Assembly (NCBI GenBank): GCA_044238365.1
Contig: JBIIDM010000003.1
Span: 1 to 58,510, forward strand
Length of the DNA: 58,510 nt
DNA from: Bdellovibrionota bacterium
GTDB lineage: Bacteria; Bdellovibrionota_C; UBA2361; JBIIDM01
Reading direction: 5' to 3'
Shown here piece after piece: positions 4,815 through 55,492 of the stretch; the first letter of the stretch is position 1, and every line of letters begins with the position of its first letter. Below the pieces are notes generated by a model, which did no database searches, was not told the origin of the DNA, and worked only from the letters and a program-made list of their open reading frames with translations. Position numbers and translations under genes: made by a program.

Positions 4815-4887
4815 AACCTGAGTTCGACGTAAGAACTGCGGTAAATGGTTCAGCCATTTGCCGCAGTTCTTACGTCGAACTCAGGTT
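4815..4887. mobile_element. Family A short foldback derivative (A1): 34-bp stem, 5-nt loop
   Basis: aacctgagttcgacgtaagaactgcggtaaatgg-ttcag-ccatttgccgcagttcttacgtcgaactcaggtt, with 1 mismatch in the stem. Both arms are of the 'right-end' type of family A. Confidence 0.85.
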
Positions 4888-5157: not shown

Positions 5158-5334
5158 AACCTGAGTTCGACGTAAGAACAAAGGTAAATGGTTGAAATTG
5201 CCTTAGACACGAGGCGTGCAGTGATATAAAAGCGCAGGCTGAAGCTTGCTACGTCGAGCATTTTATATCATGAGCAACGAAGTGGATGAAGTAATTTCAG
5301 CCATTTACCGCAGTGCTTACGTCGAACTCAGGTT
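5158..5334 (+). mobile_element. Family A MITE, full copy A2 (177 bp)
   Basis: 22-bp TIRs aacctgagttcgacgtaagaac/gttcttacgtcgaactcaggtt with nested internal inverted repeats. Flanked by CAT/CAT. Confidence 0.9.
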
Positions 5335-5881: not shown

Positions 5882-8584
5882 TTAATTCACCCGAATAATT
5901 TCTATGGCCTGGCATATCGCATTTTTGCCTTTAAAGTTAATGTTCAGGACGCCGTCGGTAACGACCGTTGTCGGCGGTTTTACGCTCCAGTCGCCATACC
6001 AGCCGCGAAATGGCCATGTGCTCCCAAGGGAAGTCCAGGGGTCAAAGGCATTAATGCCAACGGTACCTTCCACCGTTACGCTAAAGCTTCGTTTGCCACC
6101 GACTTTGTAACCAAGTTCAGAGTACCACGCACCCACATTATATGTGCCGTTCGGTACCGGTATCGCGTAACCGAACGAATCTCCTTCTCTTTGAGTCTGA
6201 TACAAGGTGTCATCGGTTGTTCCGACCACAGGTTTTGAGTAAGTTCGGACTCTTGATGATCCTTTAATTAAATATGAAGCATTTTCACCTTGCCAGATAT
6301 TTTTCGACTTATCCACGTAATTCTCTCGCGCGCCGCACCGTAGTAGACGTCGAGTTTTGATCGGGGTTACGGTAGGTTCAATTGTTTGTGTGGCTGTTGG
6401 CGTAGGTGTGCGTGTAGGTGTGCGTGTAGGGGTGGCGGTAAAAGGAGGAGTAGTTGTAGCAGTCTTTGTAGGAGTAGCAGTTTTTGTAGGAGTATAGGTA
6501 GCCGTAAAGGTGTTCGAGGCGGCGGCCGTCGGCGTGTTGGTAGTTGTAGCTGTCGGGGTGTTCGTTCTGGTAGCTGTTGCAGTGTTTGACGAAGTAGTTG
6601 TTGGGGTATTTGTCGCGGTAGCTGTTAAAATAAAAGTGGGAGTAGCTGAGGAGGTACTTGTGGGAGTGTAGGTAGCCGTAAAGGTTTTGGACACGGTGGC
6701 TGTCGGCGTATTGGTAGTTGTAGTTGTTGCAGTGTTTGATGCAGTCGCTGAAGCCGTGGGGGTGGGGTTGGCTGTCGGAGGAGTTGAAGCGCATGCTGGA
6801 GTTGTTTTTGGTATACCTGAGCAGATACCAGGTTGGTCCATCTCCACTGACTGCAGTGCCTTTGTAACTTCAGCACAGTCAGTATCGGTTATTCCTTTAA
6901 GTCCTTGAGCAACCATGAGATTACAAGTCTCTGTGATGTGAGTATAGGCCAGGGGGAAATTTTCATCAAAAACAAAGAAGTCGTCCCAAGCCTTTAACAT
7001 AATCTGCATGGTTTTTTCTATGCCAATTCCATTTATACTGCAGCCGTTGAAGGCACCACCCTGAGACATCAGATAATTTGCTTTATTCATTACGCCCATT
7101 TTTTTGTACGAGTCCTCGGCGGCGTCGTTACATGGAAAGAGTGGGCTGTAATAACGGTCAGCTCCTGTGTTGTTTATAGTCGGATCCGCAAGAGAGCGTT
7201 TAGCACCAGTAGGGTACTCTTCGCCTTGGGCCCAATGTTCCTGGTCGGCGGTTGTTAGGTCGGCGTTATAGCTATACTCATAATAGACTGAGAGTAAATC
7301 AGAGAATGATTCATTGAGGGCTCTGGTTTCGGAGGTATTGTTATTATTGAATCCGATCTGTTGACCAGAGGCATTTCGGTTAGCCGCATAAGTTAAAAGA
7401 TGGCCCATTTCATGAGAGACGGTATCTCGGTTTGTGCTATTGTTACAAAAAGCCATGTCGGAACCTGCTGCTGCACCGTATGGGCATCTTCTACGAGTGA
7501 ATAGCACGATCTCGTTTGAGCCGTTGTCAGTATAGTAGGGTGTTGTGTCTTGAACGCGAGTAAATGCTCTATAACTGTCGAGATCTTCGCCGTTAGTCAC
7601 AATATAACCGCCGCCACCACTACCATTCATACCATTTCGATTGAAATTTGAACCGGCTAGGTTGTGTATCTCCTCGATGTATTGATATAGATTCTGCGTG
7701 TCGCGAGGGGATTCAGGGTGATAAGGATTGTCGCGTTGGTCGAGGGGATAGTTAAGATCGTCAGTTCCAAAGGTGTAGAATCCATCAATGGGAAGCCCGT
7801 ATCCTCGCAGGTCAACTCTATCATAGAAACAGTCCTGCGGACCTCGGTAGAGTCGTGCTCCACCCGCTGCCGCAAACTTCGAGAAAGAACAATCGTGAAT
7901 TATCTTTGTCGCTCCGAGCAGATCACTCACCATAAGTTCGATCTTTCCAGTATTTGCATTGACGTACAAGGTATATGAACCTTGCGCTGCCACAGTTGTC
8001 GCACTTACGACTTGCCACACCAGAGTAGTTTGAGTTATTCCAATATTTGTTATCGACGGCTCCACTATCATCAAAGTGACTCGAGGAAACGATCCGAAGA
8101 AGTTTCCGCCAGTTACTGTTGTTAAGTGATTTCGGGCTAGGGTGATTGCCTCTTCACGTGATAAATCTGGATTTGTGTTGATTGCGGTGTAGGGTGCTAT
8201 TTTCCCCGTAAGAAGAATTGGCGAATGATTCTTGTCGAAATGAACTGAGTATGTTGCACCTAAAACAATTACGCCATCACGAAGCTGTTGAAACTCAATC
8301 GCTGGTATTCCTGAGGAGGTTTTATTGATCGGAAGGGGAAGAAGTTCTTCTTGAATGTTGCGAAGATTCAAATCCTCTGAGTGATCCCGCAGAAATTTTT
8401 CCGCAAGAATAACTGGATCTTGGGATGTTGGCGGAGCAGGATCTGTAGAATCCCTGAGAGTCACTAGAAGGCCCTGAAAGTCACGAGTAATTTCGGTTTG
8501 GGCTTGGGTCGAAATTGAAACTCCAAGAACTAGGCAGATGGTAATAAAGATCGCGATGGTCGCGGGCGAGTAATAATGTCTCAT
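5882..8584 (-). CDS. Secreted M4 (thermolysin-like) zinc metalloprotease with Thr/Pro linker and C-terminal malectin-like carbohydrate-binding domain
   Basis: Signal peptide. Propeptide-like N-terminal region. HEXXH (VSHEMGHLL) plus downstream NESFSD Glu ligand. ~150-aa T/P/S/A linker. C-terminal [27 protein letters not shown]. Confidence 0.8.
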
Positions 8585-10076: not shown

Positions 10077-10252
10077 AACCTGAGTTCGATGTAAGAACAA
10101 AGGTAAATGGTTGAAATTGCTTTAGACACGAGGCATGAGTGATATAAAAGCGCAGGCTGAAGCTTGCTACGTCGAGCATTTTATATCATGAGCAACGAAG
10201 TGAATGAAGTAATTTCAACCATTTACCGCAGTTCTTACGTCGAACTCAGGTT
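10077..10252 (+). mobile_element. Family A MITE, full copy A3 (176 bp)
   Basis: About 7 differences from A2 by eye. Flanked by AAT/AAT. Ends 50 nt upstream of the opgG ATG. Confidence 0.9.
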
Positions 10253-20972: not shown

Positions 20973-21151
20973 AACCTGAGTTCGACGTAAGAACTGCGGT
21001 AAATGGTTGAAATTACTTCATCCACTTCGTTGCTCATGATATAAAATGCTCGACGTAGCAAGCTTCAGCGCCTGCGCTTTTATATCACTGCACGCCTCTT
21101 GTCTAAAGCAATTTCAACCATTTACCTTTGTTCTTACGTCGAACTCAGGTT
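20973..21151 (-). mobile_element. Family A MITE, full copy A4 (179 bp, inverted orientation)
   Basis: Same TIRs and interior as A2 in reverse. Flanks TAG/AAG (2 of 3). Sits between convergent genes and abuts a D-family half element. Confidence 0.9.
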
Positions 21152-21154
21152 AAG

Positions 21155-21223
21155 AATATTATTTTCGGCAAAATCTTCAGCACCTTAACCACTATGGTGG
21201 TGCGGGCTCGTGAATAATCCAGG
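21155..21223. mobile_element. Family D half element (D1, right ~70 bp)
   Basis: ..attttcggcaaaatcttcagcaccttaacc..ggtggtgcgggctcgtgaataatccagg matches the right half of D3. The left half is replaced by A4. Confidence 0.6.
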
Positions 21224-22140: not shown

Positions 22141-22213
22141 TTAGTAATGCCAGAGCGTAGAGTAACTGCGGCGGAGAGTAGATATGCGCGCTGATCCAAC
22201 CGCAGGGCCTATT

Positions 22214-22341
22214 TATAGTAATCTTCAAAAATAATAAAGTATTAAAGATTACTATAACGACTCGCGGAGGCGAGTCAAAACAAACACATAGCCATCGCCG
22301 AGATGCGACTCAAAACCACATTATTTTTGACGATGGCTATA
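22214..22341 (+). mobile_element. Family C element (C2, 128 bp)
   Basis: See C1. Flanked by TA/TA. Confidence 0.8.
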
Positions 22342-22500
22342 ATAAGGTAACCTATCTCATGGAGATTCTGTTGTTGGCAAATCTCGGCTTCCAGAGTGCG
22401 GCAAAAATCCTATAAATAACTGCGTTATTTTAACTTTTTCGGCGACACGCTTGGAACCCGGTCTGGCTCACCATGGAAATCCCATAAATTATCCGACTTA

Positions 22501-23328
22501 TTACAAAGACTCAACGGGCAGTAGATATCCTCGCGATATGCCATCAGCACGAGTGGGGAGAGAAAACGACACTGTTTCGCCAAGAGTAATGTTACCGCAG
22601 CAGATCCCCGATACCACCCACGGGTATATTTCGTGTTCCTTCTTAAGGACTCTCTTGGAGAGTAGGTCTGGGGTCTCGTTTGCGTCTATTTTCATTGCGG
22701 CCTGAGCGATGATCGGGCCGGCGTCAACTTCAGGGATCACCAGATGGACCGAACAACCGTGTTGGGTTACGCCATGTGCTAAGGCGCGTTCATGGGTGTT
22801 TAGCCCGGGAAAAGCCGGTAATAACGAAGGGTGTATATTGATTATTTTGGGGAAGAGCTGCTCAGTAAAAGCAGGCGGAAGGACTTTCATGAAACCGGCC
22901 AGACACACCAGGGTTGGCTGTACTTCAAGAACGCGGTCAAGAAGGTGCGCAAAAAATCGATTTTTTGAGTTGAATGAGGATCGGTCGGGTAGAACGATAG
23001 TATCTATGCCGCGCTCCTGTGCCCATGCCAGACCTGCAGTCGATGGATTGTCGGAAATTACCCGAATAACTGAGTAATTTCCTGCTTGGCCAGTGATGCT
23101 TCTTTCGGTAGCTTCGCTGTGAGCATGTTCGACAAGGGCCATCATGTTGGATCCTCGACCTGAGATTAGGACGACAACAGGGGCAGGGGGTCGTTGTGTC
23201 CCCCCTCTGCCGCCATCATCCTCGCATGATTCAGCGCAAGCTGCACTGCCTGTTAATGTGCTCACGAATTGATCCTTTTTAAATGTCAATGATACTCTCC
23301 TGGTAACCTGAGTTCGACGTAAGAACAA
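22501..23328 (-). CDS. purN: Phosphoribosylglycinamide formyltransferase
   Basis: VVVLISGRGSNMMAL, FMKVLPP, INIHPSLLPAFPG and HLVIPEVDAGPII motifs. The ORF-track start (TTG 23328) lies inside MITE A5, so the true start is uncertain. Confidence 0.85.
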   Translation of the reverse strand: MFLRRTQVTRRVSLTFKKDQFVSTLTGSAACAESCEDDGGRGGTQRPPAPVVVLISGRGSNMMALVEHAHSEATERSITGQAGNYSVIRVISDNPSTAGLAWAQERGIDTIVLPDRSSFNSKNRFFAHLLDRVLEVQPTLVCLAGFMKVLPPAFTEQLFPKIINIHPSLLPAFPGLNTHERALAHGVTQHGCSVHLVIPEVDAGPIIAQAAMKIDANETPDLLSKRVLKKEHEIYPWVVSGICCGNITLGETVSFSLPTRADGISRGYLLPVESL

Positions 23329-23482
23329 AGGTAAATGGCTAAAATTGCTTTAGACACGAGGTGTGCAGTGATATAAAAGCGCAGGCTGACAGCTTGCTAC
23401 GTCGAGCATCTTATATCATGAGCAACGAAGTGGATGAAGTAATTTTAGCCATTTACCGCAGTTATTACGTCGAACTCAGGTT
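23305..23482 (+). mobile_element. Family A MITE, full copy A5 (178 bp)
   Basis: TIRs and interior as A2. Flanked by GGT/GGT. Overlaps the 5' end of the purN ORF by 24 nt. Confidence 0.9.
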
Positions 23483-32264: not shown

Positions 32265-32303
32265 GGTATGCGCGCCACCCAGCCGTACTTGCTCACCGTC
32301 TAG

Positions 32304-32355
32304 CCCGGATTATTCACGAGCCCGCTCTGGAGGTGCATTTCGTGAATAATCCTGG
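32304..32355. mobile_element. Family D short hairpin derivative (D2, 52 bp)
   Basis: cccggattattcacgag...ttcgtgaataatcctgg. Flanks CTAG/TTAG. 40 nt downstream of the deaD stop, so it may act as a terminator. Confidence 0.7.
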
Positions 32356-32398
32356 TTAGTTATTCACAATAATAACCTTACAATACGTGTGTCGGGAT

Positions 32399-33980: not shown

Positions 33981-35135
33981 ATGTCAGTTTCATTTGAACT
34001 AAGTGATACTCATCAGATGCTTCGCGACTCAGTGCGAGCTTTTGCAGAGAAGGAGATCAGGCCGGTAGCGCGTGAACTTGATGAGAAGGAGCAGTTTTCA
34101 GTGGCTCTAACGGAAAAAATGGGTGAGCTGGGTCTTTTTGGCATCGTTATCCCCGAAGAGTACGGTGGGCAAGGCATGGACTACCTTGCTTATGCGATAG
34201 CCTGCGAGGAGCTTGCCCGGGTTGATAGTTCGCAGGCAGCTACCATTACAGCCCACAATTCGCTTGGTGTCGGGCCTCTGTATTACTTCGGTAACGAGGA
34301 GCAGCGTCGACAATATCTGCCACCGCTTTGTACGGGAAAGAAGGTTTGGGGTTTTGGTCTTACAGAACCTGGGGCCGGTTCGGATTCTCGTGGCAGTAAA
34401 ACCACAGCCGAGCTTCGGGGGGATAACTGGGTTATTAATGGGTCCAAGCAATGGATAACTAATGGCTCTTGTCCGCTAAATGCTGGAATTACCGTTCAGG
34501 CAGTGAGTGGACGCGCTGCTGATGGTGATCCCGAACTGAGCTGTTTTATTATTGACCGAGGAACCCCAGGATTTGAAGCACGAACGATGCACGGAAAATT
34601 GATGTGGCGGGCATCGGATACCTCAGAGTTGTTTTTTAATGAGTGCGCCATCCCCCCTGAGAATCTTTTGGGAGAGGTGGGTGCTGGTTCAAAGCAGATG
34701 CTTCAAACGCTTGACTCAGGAAAAATTGGTATAGCTGCCATGGGAGTAGGACTTGCCCAAGGAGCGTATGAGGCTGCTCTTAAGTATGCCCAGGAGCGAC
34801 GTCAGTTTGGTCGGTCACTTACTAAGTTTCAAGCTATTGCCTTCAAACTGGCAGACATGGCAACAAAGATAGAAGTAGCTCGTACGATGCTTTACAGACT
34901 GTGTTGGATGCGGGATACCGGTATGCGGGTTACCAAGGAGGCGGCGATGACCAAGCTGTTCTGTTCAGAAATAGCGCAGGAAGTGGCGAATGAAGCTGTC
35001 CAGATTCATGGTGGGTACGGTTTGATGAAAGAGTACGAGGTGGAGCGTTTCTATCGGGACCAGCGGCTTCTTCAAATTGGCGAGGGTACATCCGAGATTC
35101 AGCGGTTGATTATTTCTCGGCAGATCGGATGCTAA
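33981..35135 (+). CDS. ivd: Isovaleryl-CoA dehydrogenase (acyl-CoA dehydrogenase family)
   Basis: ACAD motifs (GLTEPGAGSD, ..QIHGGYG.., IGEGTSEIQRLIISRQI). Context with the MCCase genes. ATG at 33981 (MSVSFELSD) is preferred over the ORF-track start. Confidence 0.85.
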   Translation: MSVSFELSDTHQMLRDSVRAFAEKEIRPVARELDEKEQFSVALTEKMGELGLFGIVIPEEYGGQGMDYLAYAIACEELARVDSSQAATITAHNSLGVGPLYYFGNEEQRRQYLPPLCTGKKVWGFGLTEPGAGSDSRGSKTTAELRGDNWVINGSKQWITNGSCPLNAGITVQAVSGRAADGDPELSCFIIDRGTPGFEARTMHGKLMWRASDTSELFFNECAIPPENLLGEVGAGSKQMLQTLDSGKIGIAAMGVGLAQGAYEAALKYAQERRQFGRSLTKFQAIAFKLADMATKIEVARTMLYRLCWMRDTGMRVTKEAAMTKLFCSEIAQEVANEAVQIHGGYGLMKEYEVERFYRDQRLLQIGEGTSEIQRLIISRQIGC

Positions 35136-35234
35136 GAAGCTGTCCAGAAATAAACAGTGCACTTTCTTGCTCAGAACGTCAAAATTTAGGGTAAATCTGA
35201 GCGTTAAATGCACAGTTTATTTCTGGACAGCTCC
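35136..35234. mobile_element. MITE-like element, family E (E1, 99 bp hairpin)
   Basis: TIRs gaagctgtccagaaataaacagtgcac / atgcacagtttatttctggacagctcc. Flanked by TAA/TAA, and the left TAA is the ivd stop codon. Confidence 0.8.
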
Positions 35235-35273
35235 TAAATAGTACGAATACTCTTCACTCTGAATGCTTTTACT

Positions 35274-36911
35274 ATGAACACTATTCACTCTGAATTTGCT
35301 ACCAAGGATTCGCCTAAGCAACGTAGCTCCTCATTTGCTGACAATAAGGCATATAATGCCTCGTTGCTTGCCGATTTAAAGGAACGATTGGCAAAAGTAA
35401 AGGAGGGAGGTGGCGACGCTCAAGTTGCTCGTCACCGCAGTCGCGGAAAAATGTTGCCACGCGAGCGAATCGATCTTTTGCTTGATCAGGGAAGTCCCTT
35501 TTTGGAAGTTGCTCCGTTGGCAGCATGGGGAATGTACGAGGGGGGAAGCGTCCCCTCTGCGGGGATAGTTGCTGGAATTGGAAAGATACACAATCGAATC
35601 TGCATGATTATTTCCAATGATGCGACGGTTAAAGGAGGAACGTATTTTCCCCTTACCGTGAAGAAGCATCTTCGAGCGCAGGAGATCGCCCGAGTTAATG
35701 CGCTTCCGTGTATTTATCTCGTGGATTCGGGAGGGGCATTCTTGCCAATGCAGGATGAGGTTTTTCCCGACCGAGATCACTTTGGCCGGATATTTTATAA
35801 TCAGGCACAGATGTCAGCTGCCGGAATTCCGCAGATAGCTGTGGTTTTGGGCTCATGCACCGCCGGGGGTGCTTATGTGCCAGCAATGTCTGATGAAACG
35901 ATCATCGTAAAGGAGAACGGAACAATTTTTCTTGCGGGGCCGCCTCTGGTGAAGGCTGCTACGGGTGAAATAGTTTCTGATCAGGACTTAGGCGGTGCTG
36001 AAGTGCACACCGCAATATCAGGGGTTGCGGACCATTATGCAGGGGATGAGGACGAAGCATTGCATTTAACTCGTTCGATTGTTGAGAATCTTGGTTCAGC
36101 AGGGATTAAGGCCGGGAGTAGCGTACGGGAGAGTATTCCACCTTTGTATGATTCTGAGGATATAGCCGGGATTCTTCCTGCAGATACCACAAAGACACCC
36201 TTCGATGTTCGGGAGGTGATTGCACGAATTGTTGATGCGTCAGAATTTCATGAATTCAAGCGTAATTATGGAAAGACGTTGGTTTGCGGTTTCGCATATA
36301 TTCATGGTCAGTCAATCGGTATTGTAGCGAATAATGGTGTACTCTTTTCTGAGAGTGCTCTTAAGGGGGCGCACTTTATCCAGTTATGTGGACAACGTGG
36401 CATACCGTTGCTCTTTCTGCAGAACATTACCGGTTTTATGGTGGGGAGTAAGTACGAGTCAGAGGGGATAGCGAAGCATGGAGCAAAATTCGTTACCGCC
36501 GTATCAACCGTTAATGTGCCTAAGTTTACCGTGATTATTGGTGGCTCCTACGGTGCTGGCAATTACGGAATGTGTGGGCGTGCGTACGACCCTCGTTTTC
36601 TTTGGATGTGGCCAAATGCTCGAATTGCTGTAATGGGGGGGGAGCAGGCCGCAGGAGTATTGGTAACAGTGCAGCAGCAGGCTCGCGAGAAAGCTGGAAA
36701 GGAATCACTGACTGAAGAAGAGATTCTTAGCATAAAGTCGCCCATCTTAAGCCAGTTTCAGACACAGAGTGACCCGTACTATAGCTCTGCTCGATTGTGG
36801 GATGATGGAATTATTGAGCCAGCAGCGACTCGTGATGTTATCGGGTTGGCACTGGAGGTGTGTTATTCACCACATCGGGAGAGTTCCACCTACGGAATCT
36901 TCCGCATGTAG
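35274..36911 (+). CDS. mccB: Methylcrotonyl-CoA carboxylase, carboxyltransferase (beta) subunit
   Basis: 545 aa. Carboxyltransferase motifs (..[12 protein letters not shown].., ..[15 protein letters not shown].., ..[16 protein letters not shown]..). Confidence 0.88.
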
Positions 36912-37820: not shown

Positions 37821-39356
37821 ATGGAAAATAATCCGGTGCCAACTGAAATTCGTTCTATTCTGATTGCCAACCGTGGCGAGATAGCAGTTCGTGTTATTGC
37901 GACGTGCCGAAGTATGGGCATTCGGAGTGTCGCCATAGCGTCGCGGAGTGATGAGCGGAGCCCGCACGCTCTTAATGCAGATGCGCTGTTTGTACTAGGG
38001 GAGGGAACGCAGCTCTCCGAAACATATCTAAATCAGGATGCCATCATCGAGATCGCACATAAGGCCAAGGTGGATGCCATTCATCCGGGGTACGGTTTCC
38101 TATCTGAGAATCGGAAGTTTGCTGAGCGGGTGCGCGCGGAGGGTTTTATCTTTATTGGCCCACCACCCCAATGTATCGAATCGATGGGCGATAAAATCGG
38201 CGCCCGTCGTGCAGCGATCGCTGCGGGGGTTCCAATCGTTCCGGGATATGATAGTGACAACCAGGACAGTGAAGTTTTGAAGAAGGAAGCTGCGAGTATT
38301 GGCTATCCTGTGCTGATCAAGGCTTCAGCAGGTGGTGGTGGAAAGGGCATGCGTGTTGTCACTGAGCCGAAAGATTTTGACCAAGCGCTGGCCCAAGCTC
38401 GTGGAGAGGCTGAGAATGCTTTTGGTGATTCACGGGTCTTTCTGGAAAAGTACCTTAGGTACCCTCGTCATATTGAAGTGCAGGTCTTTAGCGACACACA
38501 CGGTAATCACCTTCATCTTTTTGAACGAGAGTGCTCAATACAAAGGCGCCACCAGAAGATAGTTGAGGAGACGCCATCGATGGCGCTTGATGATGAATCA
38601 CGAGCATGGGTTACTTCTCGTGCAGTCGCACTTGCTGCAGCGATCGGGTATGAGGGAGCTGGAACAATCGAATTTATCATGGATGCCGACCCTGAAAGTG
38701 GAAAGGGTGATCTATACTTCCTTGAAATGAATACTCGTTTGCAGGTTGAGCATCCTGTGACTGAGTGTGTGACGGGACTTGACCTTGTTCGCTTGCAGAT
38801 ACTGGTCGCGCAGGGCGAAGCCCTTCCGTTTACTCAGGAAGAGTTAAAGCAAAACGGCCATGCCATTGAGTGTCGGATTTACGCCGAGGATCCGCTCCGA
38901 GGTCACCTACCATCTACGGGAATATTGCAGGCTATCGGGGGCGTCCCAATGCGAAATGTTCGCCTCGATTGCGGCTTTAGTGATGGTCAGGAAGTAACGG
39001 CGCATTACGATCCAATGATAGCCAAACTGATTGTGTGGGGGCCAACACGGGATGAGGCCATTGAAACAATGCAGCGTGCTCTTCGCAGTTATACTTTTGC
39101 TGGCTTGAAATCCAATGTAAGGTATTTGGAGCGAATTTTGGCAGTAGATGCGTTTAGGAAAGGCAAGACCTTTACAAATTTTCTCGTCACGCATGAGGAT
39201 GACCTACGTATGCTGGAAACCAGTGACTATGATCGCGCTTTAGCGATGGGAGTGTATCTGCTTTGTTCGGGGAATCCGCAACGGTCTAGTAGTCCGGGCA
39301 AGGAGCCGATTACCGTGTGGAGAAATTCGTTGCTTAATGGTTTCAGGAGCGCCTAG
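37821..39356 (+). CDS. mccA: Methylcrotonyl-CoA carboxylase alpha, biotin-carboxylase portion (split gene)
   Basis: ATP-grasp BC motifs (ILIANRGEIAVRVI, GGGGKGMR, EMNTRLQVEHPVTE). Ends at 511 aa without a biotinyl domain. Confidence 0.88.
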   Translation: MENNPVPTEIRSILIANRGEIAVRVIATCRSMGIRSVAIASRSDERSPHALNADALFVLGEGTQLSETYLNQDAIIEIAHKAKVDAIHPGYGFLSENRKFAERVRAEGFIFIGPPPQCIESMGDKIGARRAAIAAGVPIVPGYDSDNQDSEVLKKEAASIGYPVLIKASAGGGGKGMRVVTEPKDFDQALAQARGEAENAFGDSRVFLEKYLRYPRHIEVQVFSDTHGNHLHLFERECSIQRRHQKIVEETPSMALDDESRAWVTSRAVALAAAIGYEGAGTIEFIMDADPESGKGDLYFLEMNTRLQVEHPVTECVTGLDLVRLQILVAQGEALPFTQEELKQNGHAIECRIYAEDPLRGHLPSTGILQAIGGVPMRNVRLDCGFSDGQEVTAHYDPMIAKLIVWGPTRDEAIETMQRALRSYTFAGLKSNVRYLERILAVDAFRKGKTFTNFLVTHEDDLRMLETSDYDRALAMGVYLLCSGNPQRSSSPGKEPITVWRNSLLNGFRSA

Positions 39357-39358
39357 AA

Positions 39359-39865
39359 ATGGAGAAGAAGTTTACCATAGACGGTGTCGAGCACGTTATT
39401 TCCAAGCTGTGTGTGGCTGGTGAAGAGGTTACTTTTGACTTTATAGGGACGTCATACCGTTTCAAACTCTTACAGAGCAGTAGTGGTGTTTCATGGGTTG
39501 TTCAGGATTGTAATACGCATGCCGTACACCGGGGTGCCATTGCTCCGGTACCCCAGAAACTGAGCACAGTAGTGATAAGTACTGACGGTACTGCGTGTGA
39601 GGTTGCACCGGTTGCGCGAAAGGGTGGCGGGCAAGAAGTGTCGGCTGTTACGGGAAGTAATCCAGTGGCGCCGCTGACAGGGGTAATTCGGGAGGTTTCG
39701 GTGGCGGTTGGTCAGGAGGTTACGGCAAACCAGACGGTGGCGACGATGGAGGCTATGAAGATGCAGTTGGCCATTGTGGCGCCTAAGGCAGGGACGGTGA
39801 GGGAGGTTTGTGTGGGTGTTGGGGATCAGGTGATGGAGGGACAGATTGTGGTGGTCGTTGGGTAA
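39359..39865 (+). CDS. Biotin carboxyl carrier (biotinyl/lipoyl) protein, separate C-terminal portion of MCCase alpha
   Basis: Biotinylation motif MEAMKM. AGGAG lies 9 nt upstream of the ATG. Reading frame differs from that of the upstream BC ORF. Confidence 0.8.
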   Translation: MEKKFTIDGVEHVISKLCVAGEEVTFDFIGTSYRFKLLQSSSGVSWVVQDCNTHAVHRGAIAPVPQKLSTVVISTDGTACEVAPVARKGGGQEVSAVTGSNPVAPLTGVIREVSVAVGQEVTANQTVATMEAMKMQLAIVAPKAGTVREVCVGVGDQVMEGQIVVVVG

Positions 39866-40304: not shown

Positions 40305-40310
40305 TCCTAT

Positions 40311-40331
40311 TTCTTACGTCGAACTCAGGTT
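40311..40331. mobile_element. Solo family A terminal repeat (A6)
   Basis: ttcttacgtcgaactcaggtt, 6 nt after the yciH stop. Confidence 0.7.
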
Positions 40332-41440: not shown

Positions 41441-41551
41441 AGGGGCGCGACCTGATTAGTTGCTAACTGCGGGTGTGGGGTGAGTCGCCCATGTTTTTTT
41501 GCGACACCGTGTAATCATCGATCGAGTCTCTGGAAATGTCTACATCAACAC

Positions 41552-41574
41552 CTGTTTTATTTCTGAACAGCTCC
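41552..41574. mobile_element. Solo family E terminal repeat (E3)
   Basis: ctgttttatttctgaacagctcc, directly abutting TTA (41575-41577), which is the TAA stop of the acyl-CoA dehydrogenase gene on the minus strand. Confidence 0.6.
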
Positions 41575-42708
41575 TTATCGCAGAATCTCTCGCGCGATCA
41601 CTAGCCGTTGTATTTGACTGGTCCCTTCATAAATCTGCATTAGTTTGGCATCACGCATAAACTTTTCAACCGGATAATCTTTGGTATAACCATTACCGCC
41701 AAGTATTTGAACGGCATCAGTGGTGACTTTCATTGCTGTATCGGCAGCAAATCGCTTGGCCATACTTGAATGAAGAGTCGCCTGTTCTTTTCTATCAAGC
41801 AGTGATGCTGAGTAAAGAGTGAGTAAACGGGAAGCTTCAATCTCTGTCGCCATGTCGGCAAGCATTGTCTGGATAGTTTGAAATGTAGCAATCTTTACGC
41901 CGAACTGTTCGCGTTCTTTGGCGTAGCCAAGCGCGTACCGGTACGCAGCCTGGGCGATACCCACGGCGATGCTTGCAGTCAGTGGCCGGGAGAGGTCGAG
42001 AGTTTCCATGGCTAGTTTGAAACCGGCTCCTTTTGGCGCTATGAGGTGAGACTTGGGAACACGCACCCCGTCAAAATTCAAGGGCACTGTGTTTGAACAG
42101 CGTTGTCCTAACTTGTTTTCATGTGCTCCACGGCTAAGACCGATGGCATTACCCGGAACGACCACGCAGCCGATACCTTTGTGCTTTAGATGTTTATCGA
42201 ATGTGCCAAAAACCGTGAATTGCGAAGCGTATCCACCGTTTGTGATCCACTGCTTGTTTCCGTTAATTATAATTGAGTCCCCATCATCGGCAAGGGTAGT
42301 GGAGATTCCCCCAGCATCCGAACCTGCACCAGGTTCTGAAAGGCAGAACGAAGCCAGGTCTCCTTGGGTGACCAAGTTTTTAATGAAATGTTCCTTCTGT
42401 TCCGGGCTTCCGGCAAGGTGGATTGGAAGCAAGGCAAGGTCATTAGCGACGAGCGAAGTTGCGATTCCGCCGCACCCCCCCGCCAACTCCTCCACGACGA
42501 TGCACGCGTCAAAAAGTGATAGTCCTGTTCCACCCAGTTCGGAATCTAACAGAAGATTGTTTAGACCCAAAACACCTGCTTCTTTAATCAGGTCTAGTGG
42601 AAAATCTCCACGTTCGTCGAGAGCCTGAGCGGTTGGAAAAATTCGGTCAGCGGCGAATCTCTGTGCAGTTAGCCGTAGAAAATTTTGCTCTTCGGTCAAG
42701 TTAAGCAT
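41575..42708 (-). CDS. Acyl-CoA dehydrogenase (short/branched-chain type)
   Basis: ACAD motifs ([13 protein letters not shown], ..QILGGNGY.., [17 protein letters not shown]). Confidence 0.85.
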
Positions 42709-42862
42709 TTGATTATATTTATAAACGTGTTGGTAACGGTCAACGGTCTGTGCTTATAGTATTTAGATGACCTTTTAGCCCCGCTGTCTAGGATTATTTT
42801 CAGCGGAACCCACAATAGACTCGATGTGAGGTTCATGCTGTGTTAGCCCGGACGCCCAATAA

Positions 42863-43164
42863 GGAGCTGTCCAGAAATAAACTGTGCATTTAACGCTCAG
42901 ATTTGCCCTAACCCGGATTATTCACGAGCCACACCACCTGAGCGGTTAATGTACTGAATCTTCCGGCGAAAATGAGATTTTCAGACTTTCATGTGTCTCG
43001 ACACTATGTCAGCCTGAAAATCTCATTTTCTCCAAAATATTTATCACCTTAACCGCTCAGGAGGCGCGTCTCGTGAATAATCCGGGCTAAATTTGAACGT
43101 TTTCAGCGAGAAAATGCGCAGGTATACTGGAGTATTCCGAGCATTTTCGAGTAAAGAACGTTCA
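42863..43164. mobile_element. Family E element (E2) interrupted by D3; right part divergent
   Basis: Left part ggagctgtccagaaataaactgtgcatttaacgctcagatttgcccTAA equals E1 (rc). The sequence resumes after D3 with ctaaatttgaacgtt.. . Left flank is TAA. Confidence 0.6.
42912..43086. mobile_element. Family D MITE, full copy D3 (175 bp)
   Basis: 17-bp TIRs cccggattattcacgag/ctcgtgaataatccggg with nested inverted repeats (cctgagcggttaa/ttaaccgctcagg; gaaaatgagattttcag/ctgaaaatctcattttc). Flanked by CTAA/CTAA. Confidence 0.85.
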
Positions 43165-43193
43165 AACCTGAGTTCTTACATCGAACTTAGGCT
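43165..43193. mobile_element. Collapsed family A remnant (A7)
   Basis: aacctgagttcttacatcgaacttaggct: the two A termini are fused with no interior. Confidence 0.55.
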
Positions 43194-43195
43194 GT

Positions 43196-43323
43196 TATAG
43201 TAATCTTCAAAAATAATAAAGTATTAAAGATTACTATAACGACTCGCGGAGTCGAGTTAAAACAAACACATAGCCATCGCCGAAATGCTACTCAAAACCG
43301 CATTATTTTTGACGATGGCTATA
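43196..43323 (+). mobile_element. Family C element (C3, 128 bp)
   Basis: See C1/C2. About 5 differences from C2. TA flanks. Confidence 0.8.
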
Positions 43324-43441
43324 AGGGAGTTGCAAGCTATTTGACATAAAAAAAGGGAGAGGGTTGACCCGATCGTAGTCCACACGATATCTCAATATTT
43401 CAATCCTCGGTCCGCGCGCTACCAACTAGCGTTCAACGTTC

Positions 43442-44708: not shown

Positions 44709-44857
44709 TACCTGAGGTCGACGTAAGACCCCTACGGATATTAGCTCGGTATTAAATGCTCGACGTAGCACGCTACGCTGAGCGCTTTCAGATCACTCTC
44801 GCTTGTATTTACAGTATTTTCAGCTACTTACCTTTGTTCTTACGTCGAACGCAGGTC
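44709..44857 (-). mobile_element. Family A MITE, divergent copy A9 (~149 bp)
   Basis: tacctgaggtcgacgtaagac ... tacctttgttcttacgtcgaacgcaggtc. The interior retains aaatgctcgacgtagca. Ends 13 nt before the ATG at 44871. Confidence 0.7.
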
Positions 44858-48482: not shown

Positions 48483-48600
48483 ACGTTGTTTTCAAATTTT
48501 GAAGTTTTGTAGTAGAGTCAGTGCTGCTGTTTCACAGTCGATTGAAAATATACCCGATCTGGCAATGAGAGTCACTGTATTCATTTTGTGTTCTGATTAT

Positions 48601-48690
48601 TTAGGCCTTACCAATTTTTTAGGCCTTGCCAATTTTTTAGGCCTTGCCAATTTTTTAGGCCTTGCCAATTTTTTAGGCCTTGCCAATGTT
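48601..48690. repeat. Tandem direct repeat, 18 bp x 5
   Basis: ttaggccttRccaatKtt repeated head-to-tail. Three internal copies are identical and the first and last each differ by 1 nt. Lies in the divergent hbd/E1 intergenic region. Confidence 0.9.
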
Positions 48691-48739
48691 AGGATAGTGC
48701 TCATTTTCAATCAACGCGTTCTATGATTTTATATTTTTA

Positions 48740-51028
48740 ATGAATTCAGAAATGCGAGCAAAAAAACCGAAGAAAAATACGGAAGGGGAGTCGGGAATGA
48801 ATCGCACAGCTCAGCTTCAGGTAGACGATGGTAGCGCCGTTCTCGGCGTCGGAAATCGGGAACAGGTGCTTGTTTCCGAGGGTAGGCAGCCGAGTAGTAA
48901 TAGCGTCACCCAGGTCAGTCCAATCATGTCAGCATCATCTAGTGTGGGCAGTGAGTGGGAAAAATTGTTATCCCCGCTTTCGTCAGATTTTCGAGTAAAT
49001 TCATTATATCCGAACCTATCCGCTGATGAAGTAACTCCTAAGGCGCTGTTATACGCTTACTTTGAGATTTATCGGGCGCGCTATCTTGATGAAAAATGTA
49101 TCATTCTTTACAAACAGAATAAGTGCTTCTTTCATGTAGGGTGTGCGGGGCATGAAGCTATCCAAGTAGCGGTCGGAAGAGTTTTTAAAGGAGGTCATGA
49201 TTGGTTCTATCCGTACTATCGCGACCTTGGCGTGATGACAGGTCTTGGAATGAGTAACCGCGATCTTTTGATGAATTTTATGAACAAGCCCGGAGATCCC
49301 AACTCGGGCGGGCGTCAAATGCCGATGCACTACAGTAGTCCAGAACTGCACATTGTAAGTCAGAGTTCGCCTACCGGCACACAATTTAACCAGGCTATCG
49401 GCACTGCCCTGGCGGCAAAGCTCCGTGGACTGGATCAGGTAGTGTATGTTTCTGCGGGTGAGGGCACCTGCGCTCAGGGTGACTTCCATGAGTCGCTGAA
49501 TTGGGCTGCCCGGGAAAAGCTTCCGGTCGTTTTTGTCATACAGAATAATAAATATGCTATCTCCGTTCCTGTGCACCAACAATTAGCGAATGATGGAATA
49601 GCGAAGCTGGCAGCCGGGTATAAGAATCTCCACCGGGTAGAATTCGACGGTGCTGATTTGCTTGCGTCATGGTCTACAGTCAAGGATGCTCATGAACGAG
49701 CGAGGCGCGGTGAGGGGCCCGCCCTGATTGAGGCACATGTGCCACGATTGCAAAGTCATTCCATCTCAGATAATCAACTGAAATACCGCAACGCCGAAGA
49801 GGTGGATGCGATTCAGAAGGAGTGCCCTGTTTTGCGTCTTGAGGTGTTCCTGGTAAGTCATTCCATAGCTACAGTTGCACAACTGGATGAGATTAAGGAG
49901 TGGATTCGCCAGGAGGTAAATCGCGAATCAACTGAGGTTGAGAAGCTAGCGGACGCAGATCCCTCAACGGTTGATCTGTTCGTATATCCGAACCCAACTC
50001 CGTGGGAGGGAATAATAGAAGTAGCACCAACTACTGGGGAGGAGGTGTATCTGGTTGATGCGATTAACCACACGTTGCACGAAGAAATGGCACGCGATCC
50101 TAATGTTTTGGTGTTTGGGCAGGATGTTGCCGATGGCAAGGGCGGAGTTTTTACTGTTACCAGCGGCTTGACCAATCGGTTTGGAACGCAGAGGTGTTTT
50201 AATTCGCAGTTAGCTGAAAGTTCGATAGTTGGCGCGGCTATAGGTCTAGCTTGTCACCGATTCCGCCCTGTTGCTGAGATCCAGTTTGGTGATTATGTTT
50301 GGACTGCGATGATGCAGATTCGAAATGAATTGGCGATGATGTATTATCGCTCAAATGGCTCGTGGCCTCTTCCGGTCGTGCTCCGTATTCCAATCGGGGG
50401 CTATATCCGTGGCGCTGCGTATCATTCACAAAACATTGAAGCTACCTTCTCTCATTTTCCTGGTTTGAATGTTGTAATGCCCTCCAATGCAACCGATGCT
50501 CGTGGCCTACTCAAGGCAGCTATCCGGGGACAGAATCCCGTACTTTTTTTGGAGCATAAAGGGCTGTACCGCCAACCCTACGCAAAGGGCATCGAGGGGG
50601 GTGAGAATGATCTCTGTCCAATCGGCAAGGCAAAAGTCGTCCGCGAGGGGACTGATCTCACTATTGTTTCCTGGGGGCTCGTGCTGCACAAGTGTGTTGC
50701 AGTTGCACGGCAGTTGGAGAAGGAAGGGATTCGTGCGGAAATAATTGATGTACGAAGTTTTGTCCCGCTCGACATGGATACTATTGCAGCAAGCATCGCC
50801 AAGACCAGCCGTGTTTTAATAGCACATGAAGACTCCTGTTTTATGGGATTCGGAGCCGAGATAGCTGCGACGATCGCCGACAGCTGTTTTACTCTTCTTG
50901 ATGCGCCCGTTAAGCGGGTGGGTATGAAGCATGTGGCACATGTGCCACATCCGCCAGGGCTAGAGGAGGCGGTGCTGCCTCATGAGCCGACGATTTTGGC
51001 GGCGTGTCGGGAGGTGTTGACGTTTTAG
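48740..51028 (+). CDS. Fused 2-oxoacid (branched-chain) dehydrogenase E1 alpha/beta component
   Basis: The E1-alpha TPP-binding part (..GEGTCAQGDFHESLNWA..) is followed by an E1-beta transketolase-like part (..FNSQLAESSIVGAAIG..). ~90-aa Ser-rich N-terminal extension. Confidence 0.8.
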   Translation: MNSEMRAKKPKKNTEGESGMNRTAQLQVDDGSAVLGVGNREQVLVSEGRQPSSNSVTQVSPIMSASSSVGSEWEKLLSPLSSDFRVNSLYPNLSADEVTPKALLYAYFEIYRARYLDEKCIILYKQNKCFFHVGCAGHEAIQVAVGRVFKGGHDWFYPYYRDLGVMTGLGMSNRDLLMNFMNKPGDPNSGGRQMPMHYSSPELHIVSQSSPTGTQFNQAIGTALAAKLRGLDQVVYVSAGEGTCAQGDFHESLNWAAREKLPVVFVIQNNKYAISVPVHQQLANDGIAKLAAGYKNLHRVEFDGADLLASWSTVKDAHERARRGEGPALIEAHVPRLQSHSISDNQLKYRNAEEVDAIQKECPVLRLEVFLVSHSIATVAQLDEIKEWIRQEVNRESTEVEKLADADPSTVDLFVYPNPTPWEGIIEVAPTTGEEVYLVDAINHTLHEEMARDPNVLVFGQDVADGKGGVFTVTSGLTNRFGTQRCFNSQLAESSIVGAAIGLACHRFRPVAEIQFGDYVWTAMMQIRNELAMMYYRSNGSWPLPVVLRIPIGGYIRGAAYHSQNIEATFSHFPGLNVVMPSNATDARGLLKAAIRGQNPVLFLEHKGLYRQPYAKGIEGGENDLCPIGKAKVVREGTDLTIVSWGLVLHKCVAVARQLEKEGIRAEIIDVRSFVPLDMDTIAASIAKTSRVLIAHEDSCFMGFGAEIAATIADSCFTLLDAPVKRVGMKHVAHVPHPPGLEEAVLPHEPTILAACREVLTF

Positions 51029-54148: not shown

Positions 54149-55111
54149 ATGAATGGGCCCACACATTTGTCAGTTGTTATACCGTGTTACAATGAAGAGG
54201 CGGTGCTGCCTTTCTTGTTTGGGCGGATGCACGAGGTTCTGGGAGCGTTAAAGTGTCCCTATGAAGTTATACTTGTGGACGATGGGAGTCGGGATCGCAC
54301 ACGGGAGATATTACTTACGCAAAGTCAGCAGGACCCTCGCATTAGGGTGGTGGCGCTTTCGCGCAACTTCGGCCATCAGGGTGCTCTGACCGCCGGACTC
54401 GATTATGCCCGGGGAGAAGTAGTGCTCATTATGGATGCTGATTTGCAGGATCCCCCGGAGCTGCTTCCAAAAATGCTAGAGAAGTGGCGGGAGGGGTTTG
54501 ACGTGGTGTATGGCCAGAGAAGTGCCCGGATGGGGGAGTCGTGGTTTAAACGTTCGTGCGCGTTTCTCTTCTACCGGATATTTGAGCGCATTATCGGTAT
54601 AAAGGTTCCCCGGGATACAGGTGATTTTCGCCTTCTCGATCGGCGGGCGGCCAAGGGTCTTGCGGCGCTACGTGAGCCCCACCGCTTCGTGCGAGGGCTG
54701 GTGGCATGGGTCGGCTTTCGACAAACACCGGTCATGTACGAGCGGCCCAACCGGGAGCATGGCGAGACAAAGTATCCCTTCAAGAAGTCCCTATTTCTGG
54801 CAGTTGATGCCATTACGTCATTTTCCTACGCGCCGCTGCGGATGGCAACGTACCTCGGCGTGGCCATTTCTGGTTTTGCCTTTGTGTACATTGCAATTGT
54901 TCTTTTTCTGAAGATCCTAATCTGGTGGGGGCTGGAAATAGAAGAAACGCCTGGCTATACCTCGTTAATGGCGTGTGTTTTGTTGTTGGGAGGTGTTCAG
55001 CTGATCTTTCTGGGGCTGATCGGCGAGTATGTTGGCAGGATTTTCGAGCAGGGGCAGAATCGTCCTTTGTACCTTCTTGATGAAGTGACGCAACCACCGC
55101 CATTGGATTAG
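54149..55111 (+). CDS. GT2 polyprenyl-phosphate glycosyltransferase (ArnC/GtrB/DPM1-like)
   Basis: LSVVIPCYNEE, VLIMDADLQDPPE and two C-terminal TM helices. The ATG at 54149 is preferred, and the ORF is open from 54050. Confidence 0.8.
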   Translation: MNGPTHLSVVIPCYNEEAVLPFLFGRMHEVLGALKCPYEVILVDDGSRDRTREILLTQSQQDPRIRVVALSRNFGHQGALTAGLDYARGEVVLIMDADLQDPPELLPKMLEKWREGFDVVYGQRSARMGESWFKRSCAFLFYRIFERIIGIKVPRDTGDFRLLDRRAAKGLAALREPHRFVRGLVAWVGFRQTPVMYERPNREHGETKYPFKKSLFLAVDAITSFSYAPLRMATYLGVAISGFAFVYIAIVLFLKILIWWGLEIEETPGYTSLMACVLLLGGVQLIFLGLIGEYVGRIFEQGQNRPLYLLDEVTQPPPLD

Positions 55112-55274
55112 CGCGGATTATTCACGAGCCCGCACCACCAGAAGAGTGGCTAGGGCACCCTTTCGACAAAATCGTTGCCACATTGGTAAGTGGCAGCGTT
55201 AATTCCTCCCAAATGTTCCGCTTACCATGCGGTGCCCGAGTTTCTAAGTGCTCTGGTCTCGTGTTTAATGTGAT
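55112..55274. mobile_element. Family D element, degenerate copy D4
   Basis: Left TIR cgcggattattcacgagcccgcaccacc starts immediately after TTAG, whose TAG is the GT2 stop. The right TIR is only ~13/19 conserved (gtctcgtgtttaatgtgat). Confidence 0.45.
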
Positions 55275-55315: not shown

Positions 55316-55492
55316 AACCTGAGTTCGACGTAAGAACTGCGGTAAATGGCTGAGATTACTTCATCCACTTCGTTGCGAATGATATAAAATGCTCGACGTA
55401 GCAAGCTGTCAGCCTGCGCTTTTATATCATTCGCGCCTTGTGTCTAAAGCAATTTCAACCATGTACCTTTGTTCTTACGTCGAACTCAGGTT
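55316..55492 (-). mobile_element. Family A MITE, full copy A10 (177 bp)
   Basis: TIRs and interior as A4. Flanked by ATG/ATG. Abuts a B-family end fragment. Confidence 0.9.

Follow-up and report, generated by a model that had tools for sequence, protein, structure and literature searches.

A 99-bp miniature inverted-repeat element with ISAzo13-type termini lies on the stop codon (TAA) of an acyl-CoA dehydrogenase gene in a Bdellovibrionota bacterium

We analyzed a stretch of 58,510 nucleotides from a Bdellovibrionota bacterium (contig JBIIDM010000003.1 of assembly GCA_044238365.1; hereafter, the window), in which a 99-bp element, designated E1, separates an acyl-CoA dehydrogenase gene from the carboxyltransferase gene that follows it in the same cluster. 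E1 is an inverted-repeat transposable element of the miniature kind (MITE) inserted on the stop codon, TAA, of the dehydrogenase gene with a 3-bp TAA target-site duplication (TSD), and the left copy of the duplication is the functional stop codon. Considering the evidence as a whole, the best explanation is that E1 and its relatives (the E family) are ISAzo13-type MITEs that were moved in trans, and that the target of E1 was the stop codon; we put the probability of this reading at about 0.75.

The whole of E1 forms one hairpin with unequal arms, a long one of ~65 nt on the right side and a short one of ~34 nt, in which ~45 bp are paired. The minimum free energy of its RNA fold was −51 kcal/mol, compared with −22.1 ± 3.4 kcal/mol for dinucleotide shuffles (z = −8.6). 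The termini are 27 nt long and agree with each other at 24 of the 26 outer positions, and no open reading frame (ORF) is present inside the element. Across the junction, the sequence reads ...gga tgc TAA, then GAAGCTGTCCAGAAATAAACAGTGCAC...GTGCACAGTTTATTTCTGGACAGCTCC, and then TAA atag. When the 18-nt core of the terminus was compared with the window at up to 3 mismatches, 4 matches were obtained against 0.02 expected, namely both ends of E1, the left end of a second copy (E2, from position 42863) and a solo terminus (E3). E1 is thus small and non-coding, carries terminal inverted repeats and a TSD, and has many copies in differing contexts, as MITEs do. A previous sequence-only reading of this DNA had described a 99-bp hairpin at 35136-35234 between two copies of TAA and had remarked that the left end of E2 is also preceded by TAA. 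Both descriptions agree with the sequence, with TAA at 42860-42862 in the case of E2.

Note that a TAA duplication and a TA duplication next to an A borne by the element would give an identical empty site for E1, so that the flanks of other family members have to decide between the two. TAA or TTA adjoins GGAGC/GAAGC at all of the readable ends in the window and at one metagenome locus, L102 (5/5). Metagenome pieces stop matching either at 35235, when the flank is TTA, or at 35237 or later, when it is TAA, and none stops at 35236, where a "TA plus any base" class would end. In one metagenome run (X3), depth was 617 at 35232-35233, 530 at 35234-35235 and 258 at 35236-35237; T came next after ~86% of the canonical tips, and in about half of these cases the flank was TAA. 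These proportions fit a T-W-A target (W, A or T) read from either side. In addition, the one E copy in run X1 for which both ends could be read has TTA at its left. Copies elsewhere in the metagenomes and in the window are flanked by TAA or TTA, as the TNA-type duplication proposed in the sequence-only reading predicts. A 4-bp CTAA duplication at E1 was also considered and rejected, as ATAA stands at both E2 and E3 and a 3-bp flank gives the best alignment of the terminal repeats.

The dehydrogenase gene itself was left intact. Its true start is likely the ATG at 33981, since the exact 384-aa product was found on 5 metagenome contigs, whereas a 404-aa version starting at an upstream TTG was found on none. 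The protein ends in ...RLIISRQIGC*, and the same aligned end, typically ...IGC*, was found in 22 of 29 homologues with 62-71% identity, indicating that the insertion neither shortened nor lengthened the protein and that the target was the ancestral stop codon. TAA is the stop codon in 18 of the 29. The earlier proposal that the insertion preserves the ORF while setting a strong stem-loop between neighboring genes of the cluster is accordingly borne out, and the homologues stop at the same residue rather than elsewhere; relatives with an empty site were not found. This comparison of C-termini stands in for the empty site, the nearest dehydrogenase homologues in GTDB being only ~70% identical. 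The carboxyltransferase gene begins 36 nt past the right TAA copy, and when E1 and one TAA copy are taken away, the spacer between the two genes is 36 nt. The empty site is expected to read ggatgcTAAatagtacg, with the 36-nt spacer and then the ATG of the carboxyltransferase gene.

Lake and plankton metagenomes carry the organism of the window, and four of these runs (X1-X4) were used for word depth, while 8 runs were inspected at the junction. Depths of the terminus core and of the flanks were, respectively, 362 and 10 in X1, 178 and 8.8 in X2, 785 and 16-20 in X3, and 640 and 16 in X4. The E terminus was therefore 20-48 times deeper than its flanks, corresponding to roughly 20-48 termini per genome equivalent, an approximate figure given that word depths are coarse and that other organisms may contribute. 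Assemblies break within E1, and beyond the tip the other copies lead into unrelated sequences as loose ends. The family is modular, as many copies have only the outer 35-60 nt in common and contain another core (...gcaggtatactggagtattccgagcattttcgagt...), which is also present in E2. On the other side of the question, that of this particular insertion, E1 and its junction were identical in four independent metagenome assemblies (L118-L121), and all 5 contigs encoding the exact dehydrogenase protein bear an identical E1; a divergent strain (X8) has the element at the same site with a differing interior on the left side. The insertion became fixed in the sampled populations. Exact-pattern scans of GTDB genomes for the terminus gave 10 and 22 single matches, none of which could be extended, formed a family or lay near a transposase gene, and a plasmid collection gave no match at E1. 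The GTDB matches are chance ones, and neither the organism nor a close relative is represented in that collection. The scan of JGI metagenomes for the terminus gave the informative loci L102, L094 and L095.

Two of these loci connect the E family with ISAzo13. The outer 20 nt of the E terminus, GGAGCTGTCCAGAAATAAAC, are identical (20/20) to those of deletion derivatives of an insertion sequence (IS) in L094 and L095, where this terminus, with T-N-A flanks, bounds a 473-bp element and recurs as an inverted copy at the other end. In L094, TGA, GGAGCTGTCCAGAAATAAACTTTACA...GGACAAGTCC and TTA surround a remnant of PF07592, the ISAzo13 transposase domain (E-value 3e-41), and the right terminal repeat of E1 is identical to the left end of this derivative at 24 of 26 positions. 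A related element of 508 bp was found in L232 and L233; in L232 it reads TTA, GGATCTGTCCAGAAATAA...GGACAGATCC, TTA, which is a perfect TTA/TTA duplication. Both the 473-bp and the 508-bp elements retain the IS leader, the first transposase codons and the C-terminal third, indicating that they are internal-deletion derivatives. Furthermore, L234 contains a near-complete, frameshifted ISAzo13 transposase gene 55 nt after GGAGCTGTACCAAAATAACCTGTACA, which matches the E terminus at 21/26 positions. Full-length elements encoding 396-399 aa (L236-L241) have related ends, GGAGTTGTAnCAAAATAAC.TTTACA, that are identical to the E terminus at 16-21 of 26 positions, with the flanks TTA, TCA, TAA and TAT, mostly T-N-A; one of them is named ISAzo13 family transposase by NCBI. 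The ISAzo13 family, like its eukaryotic relative Zator, is reported to make 3-bp duplications (PMC10045372). The 470-510-bp derivatives are an intermediate stage between IS and MITE. A description of an ISAzo13-derived MITE was not found in the literature that mentions the family, our coverage of which was incomplete.

Beside these loci, ~245 metagenomic "hypothetical proteins" of 93-183 aa (P0121-P0240) were found to have a C-terminal PF07592 fragment, and the loci inspected (L094, 529-1001; L232, 1547-2054) lie inside 470-510-bp ISAzo13 internal-deletion derivatives. The 58.5-kb window contains no transposase gene, despite having at least 4 MITE families.

The sequence-only reading had derived the element from the IS1031 group of the IS5 family, in which case the T-N-A duplication would be the work of an IS5-type DDE transposase. 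Its statement of a 3-nt target was correct, as the IS1031 group is described as taking three nucleotides as insertion site (PMC2516522), and the TAA or TTA flanks of E are of that length. However, ISAzo13 shares this property, so the length of the duplication cannot discriminate between the two families and gives IS5 no advantage; the termini can. All coding elements recovered with an E or related terminus carry PF07592, and the scans of GTDB genomes and JGI metagenomes disclosed no IS5-type transposase beside an E-like end, nor any IS5/IS1031-like IS having the E terminal repeat. The E terminus thus matches the ends of PF07592-bearing elements and not those of IS5-type transposases, and we regard descent from IS1031 as very unlikely. 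A Stowaway-like MITE moved by an IS630-family transposase, with a TA duplication and the extra A belonging to the element, is extremely improbable. It would account equally for the empty site of E1, and an IS630-family transposase gene (DDE_3) does start ~250 nt downstream of an E-like terminus in L102. On the other hand, comparison of 5-7 independent copies (L122-L128) puts the ends of that IS630 element at TA, TACTT...AGTA, TA, with the left end 165 nt inside the E-like sequence, and the metagenomic E ends are TAA or TTA with the "TA plus non-A" class absent. The IS630 element of L102 (1668-2984), tried as a parent of E, was rejected for the same ends (TA, TACTT...), being a separate insertion nested within an E-like element of a related metagenomic organism.

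A further alternative concerns not the origin but the role of E1, namely that the hairpin is primarily a host regulatory RNA (a terminator, an attenuator or an mRNA stabilizer resembling repetitive extragenic palindromes) selected at this place, its repeat nature being secondary. A very stable stem directly after a stop codon within an operon, an insertion that is fixed and identical in all sampled populations, and the effects of the comparable Correia and ERIC MITEs on transcript processing all speak for it; RNase III cleaves the hairpins of Correia, and mRNA decay changes where ERIC elements occupy gene 3′ ends (PMC10969869). However, no intrinsic terminator was called at E1 by the terminator scan, the stem being followed by TAAATAGTACGAATAC with no U-run, and the attenuation or termination suggested in the sequence-only reading is accordingly a weak proposal. 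No Rfam family matched anywhere in the window. Its transposon-like ends, the duplications and the occurrence of dozens of copies in contexts that have nothing in common suffice as an explanation, and fixation in one species-level population is by itself no proof of selection. We therefore consider a primarily regulatory hairpin unlikely. Since a U-tract is absent, the hairpin should not act as an intrinsic terminator; by analogy with Correia and ERIC, a stem of ~45 bp in the operon transcript might be processed by RNase III or might act as a 3′ stabilizer. We provisionally regard E1 as a passenger that is tolerated and that alters the stability of one cistron relative to the other modestly at most. 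Note that the weak promoter-like match reaching out of the right terminal repeat (35224-35251) is a lead only, as promoter-like sites in the region were no more numerous than in shuffles. In the one metatranscriptome run that contains the locus, a single contig of 211 nt was found, which lies inside the carboxyltransferase gene, and a broader query gave no further RNA run.

Several observations weigh against an ISAzo13-type MITE that duplicated its target. An empty site at E1 was not found, with no contig skipping the element in the 8 metagenome runs, and the duplication is consequently read from one filled site together with the flanks across the family. A few metagenomic E ends possibly have TCA, which is not TWA, in a consensus of low agreement, and in two related elements the flanks on the two sides do not match perfectly (TGA/TTA in L094 and TAA/ATA in L240). 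Furthermore, no autonomous ISAzo13 element with the E terminus was found in the same organism, for which the sequence read was the window, and the ISAzo13-type elements with matching termini come from other metagenomes, mostly of termite gut.

The mechanism that we propose for the ISAzo13-type origin is as follows. A DDE transposase of ISAzo13 type would bind the terminal repeats of 20-26 nt and move E1 in trans, making a 3-nt staggered cut at T-W-A (TAA or TTA) that is repaired into a 3-bp duplication. With the TAA stop codon of the dehydrogenase gene as the target, the left duplicate would restore the stop and leave the protein unchanged, and the insertion could then be tolerated and later fixed. 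The polycistronic mRNA would contain an imperfect hairpin of ~45 bp immediately after the stop codon, the likeliest consequences of which would be none at all, or RNase III-type processing or 3′-end stabilization of the upstream cistron. Stop codons are among the few gene-adjacent TAA sites that are harmless to hit, and landing on a stop is best explained by target preference together with a presumed selective filter.

E1 is not the only family member at such a position. E3 is a second stop-codon insertion of the E family, 6.4 kb from E1, and abuts the end of a second acyl-CoA dehydrogenase gene (Table 1). With a rough gene set, 20 TAA stops were counted in the window along with 577 TWA sites outside coding sequence, so that stops make up ~3.4% (20/597) of the harmless TWA targets. 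E ends lie on TAA stops in 2 of 3 cases (p ~0.003), or in 1 of 2 (p ~0.07) when E1, the finding that prompted the count, is left out; the sole additional metagenomic E flank that could be read is not a gene end. It is doubtful that the E family is enriched on TAA stops, by targeting or by selective retention, with post-stop hairpins tuning the expression of neighboring cistrons. Target preference and selection against disruptive insertions are sufficient to explain the landing on stop codons. As a separate observation, the second dehydrogenase gene stands between a pair of E termini that face outward, with E3 at its 3′ side and, 152 nt upstream of its start, the left end of E2, an arrangement that suggests either a past rearrangement between E copies or coincidence.

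Table 1. Coordinates of E1, its flanking genes and the other E copies in the window (position 1 is the first nucleotide of the window).
Feature	Position	Strand	Remarks
Acyl-CoA dehydrogenase gene ("ivd" of the sequence-only reading)	33981..35135	+	384 aa; acyl-CoA dehydrogenase N, M and C domains (Pfam); insertion target was its TAA stop
Left TSD copy, TAA	35133..35135	+	Functional stop codon of the acyl-CoA dehydrogenase gene
E1, 99-bp non-coding MITE	35136..35234	.	Whole element forms one hairpin
E1 left terminal inverted repeat, GAAGCTGTCCAGAAATAAACAGTGCAC	35136..35162	+	24/26 identical to E2 terminus
E1 right terminal inverted repeat, reading inward, GGAGCTGTCCAGAAATAAACTGTGCAT	35208..35234	-	26/26 identical to E2 terminus
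Weak outward promoter-like match	35224..35251	+	TGGACA (-35) in right terminal repeat, 16 nt, AATACT (-10) in native flank; 9/12 consensus positions
Right TSD copy, TAA	35235..35237	+	Sequences of other copies part from E1 after 35235 (flank TTA) or 35237 (flank TAA)
Carboxyltransferase gene (MccB-like), next in cluster	35274..36911	+	Pfam Carboxyl_trans, E-value 2e-153; same gene call in metagenome contig L118
E3, solo E terminus remnant, GGAGCTGTTCAGAAATAAAACAGGTG	41549..41574	-	Abuts TAA stop 41575-41577; absent from the sequence-only reading
Second acyl-CoA dehydrogenase gene	41575..42708	-	Ends at family-typical position
TAA and left part of E2 (terminus from 42863)	42860..42910	+	98% match to E1 right arm; ends at the TA entered by another MITE
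Unrelated 177-bp MITE nested in E2, terminus RCCCGGATTATTCACGAG	42911..43087	.	TA duplication 42909-42910 and 43088-43089
E2 interior, continued (...gcaggtatactggagtattccgagcattttcgagt... module)	43090..43158	+	Right terminus missing; module seen as loose ends of other metagenomic E copies

Downstream of the first dehydrogenase gene, genes for the carboxyltransferase, an enoyl-CoA hydratase, a biotin carboxylase and a separate biotin carrier protein were found, and by its gene content the cluster resembles a leucine-catabolism (liu-type) cluster. This context fits the label "ivd" given to the gene previously, but the protein does not fit it as well: sequence and structure matches place it nearest to short-chain/butyryl-CoA dehydrogenases (389 bits, compared with 284 bits for bacterial isovaleryl-CoA dehydrogenase), and it reached no NCBIfam equivalog cut-off. 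The label is therefore one given by context. In the MccA-like subunit, biotin carboxylase (511 aa) and biotin carrier domain (168 aa) have separate ORFs, which lie 2 nt apart (window positions 37821-39865), with the same gene calls in metagenome contig L118; either the split is natural or a nonsense mutation has become fixed.

The window contains further repeats. A second MITE family of ~180 bp with the termini AACCTGAGTTCGACGTAAGAAC is present at 5158-5334, 10077-10252, 20973-21151, 23305-23482 and 55316-55492, and as fragments at 4817-4885, 40310-40329, 43172-43191 and 44711-44855. Its 3-bp duplications vary (CAT, AAT, GGT, ATG), indicating a target choice unlike that of E. The family with the termini RCCCGGATTATTCACGAG and a TA duplication, to which the MITE nested in E2 (42911-43087) belongs, is a third; it also occurs at 32303-32356, 55111-55133 and 21207-21222, as well as in metagenome contig L102 at about 1214-1230. 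A 130-bp repeat with an internal palindrome, GTTATAGTAATCTT...AAGATTACTATAA, represents another mobile or repeat family and has 3 copies with 96-98% identity, one of them inverted (253-384, 22213-22344 and 43195-43324). In addition, an 18-bp unit, ATTTTTTAGGCCTTGCCA, is repeated in ~6 tandem copies at 48596-48708, just upstream of a 2-oxoacid dehydrogenase E1 gene (48740-51028), and nested direct repeats (spaced by 24 nt and by 126 nt) at 6484-6798 lie within the gene for a 900-aa thermolysin-like peptidase (5882-8584, minus strand), where they probably encode a repetitive protein segment.

As for the organism, which is common in lake and plankton metagenomes, no close relative was found among GTDB species representatives, the best identity being 70% for the dehydrogenase and 57-58% for release factor RF3 (in metagenome-assembled genomes of Nitrospira, FCPU426, Bdellovibrionales and Parachlamydiaceae). 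It encodes LpxD, MdoG/MdoH-like and RCC1-repeat proteins.

E1 illustrates cleanly how a transposon with TAA as its target can enter an operon at no cost, since the duplication regenerates the stop codon. It also places a previously unrecognized MITE family in ISAzo13, a family that has been little studied and has the Zator elements as eukaryotic relatives, and it accounts for short metagenomic "hypothetical proteins" with a PF07592 fragment as remnants inside deletion derivatives. For annotation, hairpins that follow stop codons in this MITE-rich, uncultured freshwater lineage are better read as transposon scars first and as terminators second. If the association with stop codons were true genome-wide, it would let selection on insertion sites be measured.

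Among known systems, ISAzo13 insertion sequences and their deletion derivatives are closest to E1, having matching termini and 3-bp T-N-A flanks. They differ in that the full elements are ~1.3 kb and the derivatives 470-510 bp, whereas E1 has 99 bp, no coding remnant and an interior unrelated to the IS. Chunjie (2008, cited in PMC10969869) is likewise a hairpin MITE with terminal repeats and a duplication that lies between operon cistrons and leaves the ORFs intact; it differs from E1 in family, termini and size (178-235 bp), and E1 lies exactly on a stop codon, which it regenerates. The Correia elements of Neisseria and the ERIC elements of enterobacteria are also short palindromic MITEs, and are co-transcribed with neighboring genes, and they serve as a model for possible effects of E1; Correia, however, duplicates TA and is linked to a different transposase lineage. 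Among eukaryotic elements, Zator, the reported relative of ISAzo13, shares the 3-bp duplication with E1. The Tourist and mPing MITEs of PIF/Harbinger make 3-bp TAA or TTA duplications. Unlike E1, however, all of these are eukaryotic and have unrelated termini, and PIF/Harbinger is kin to IS5 and not to ISAzo13. In this company, E1 behaves as an ordinary MITE derived from a DDE transposon.

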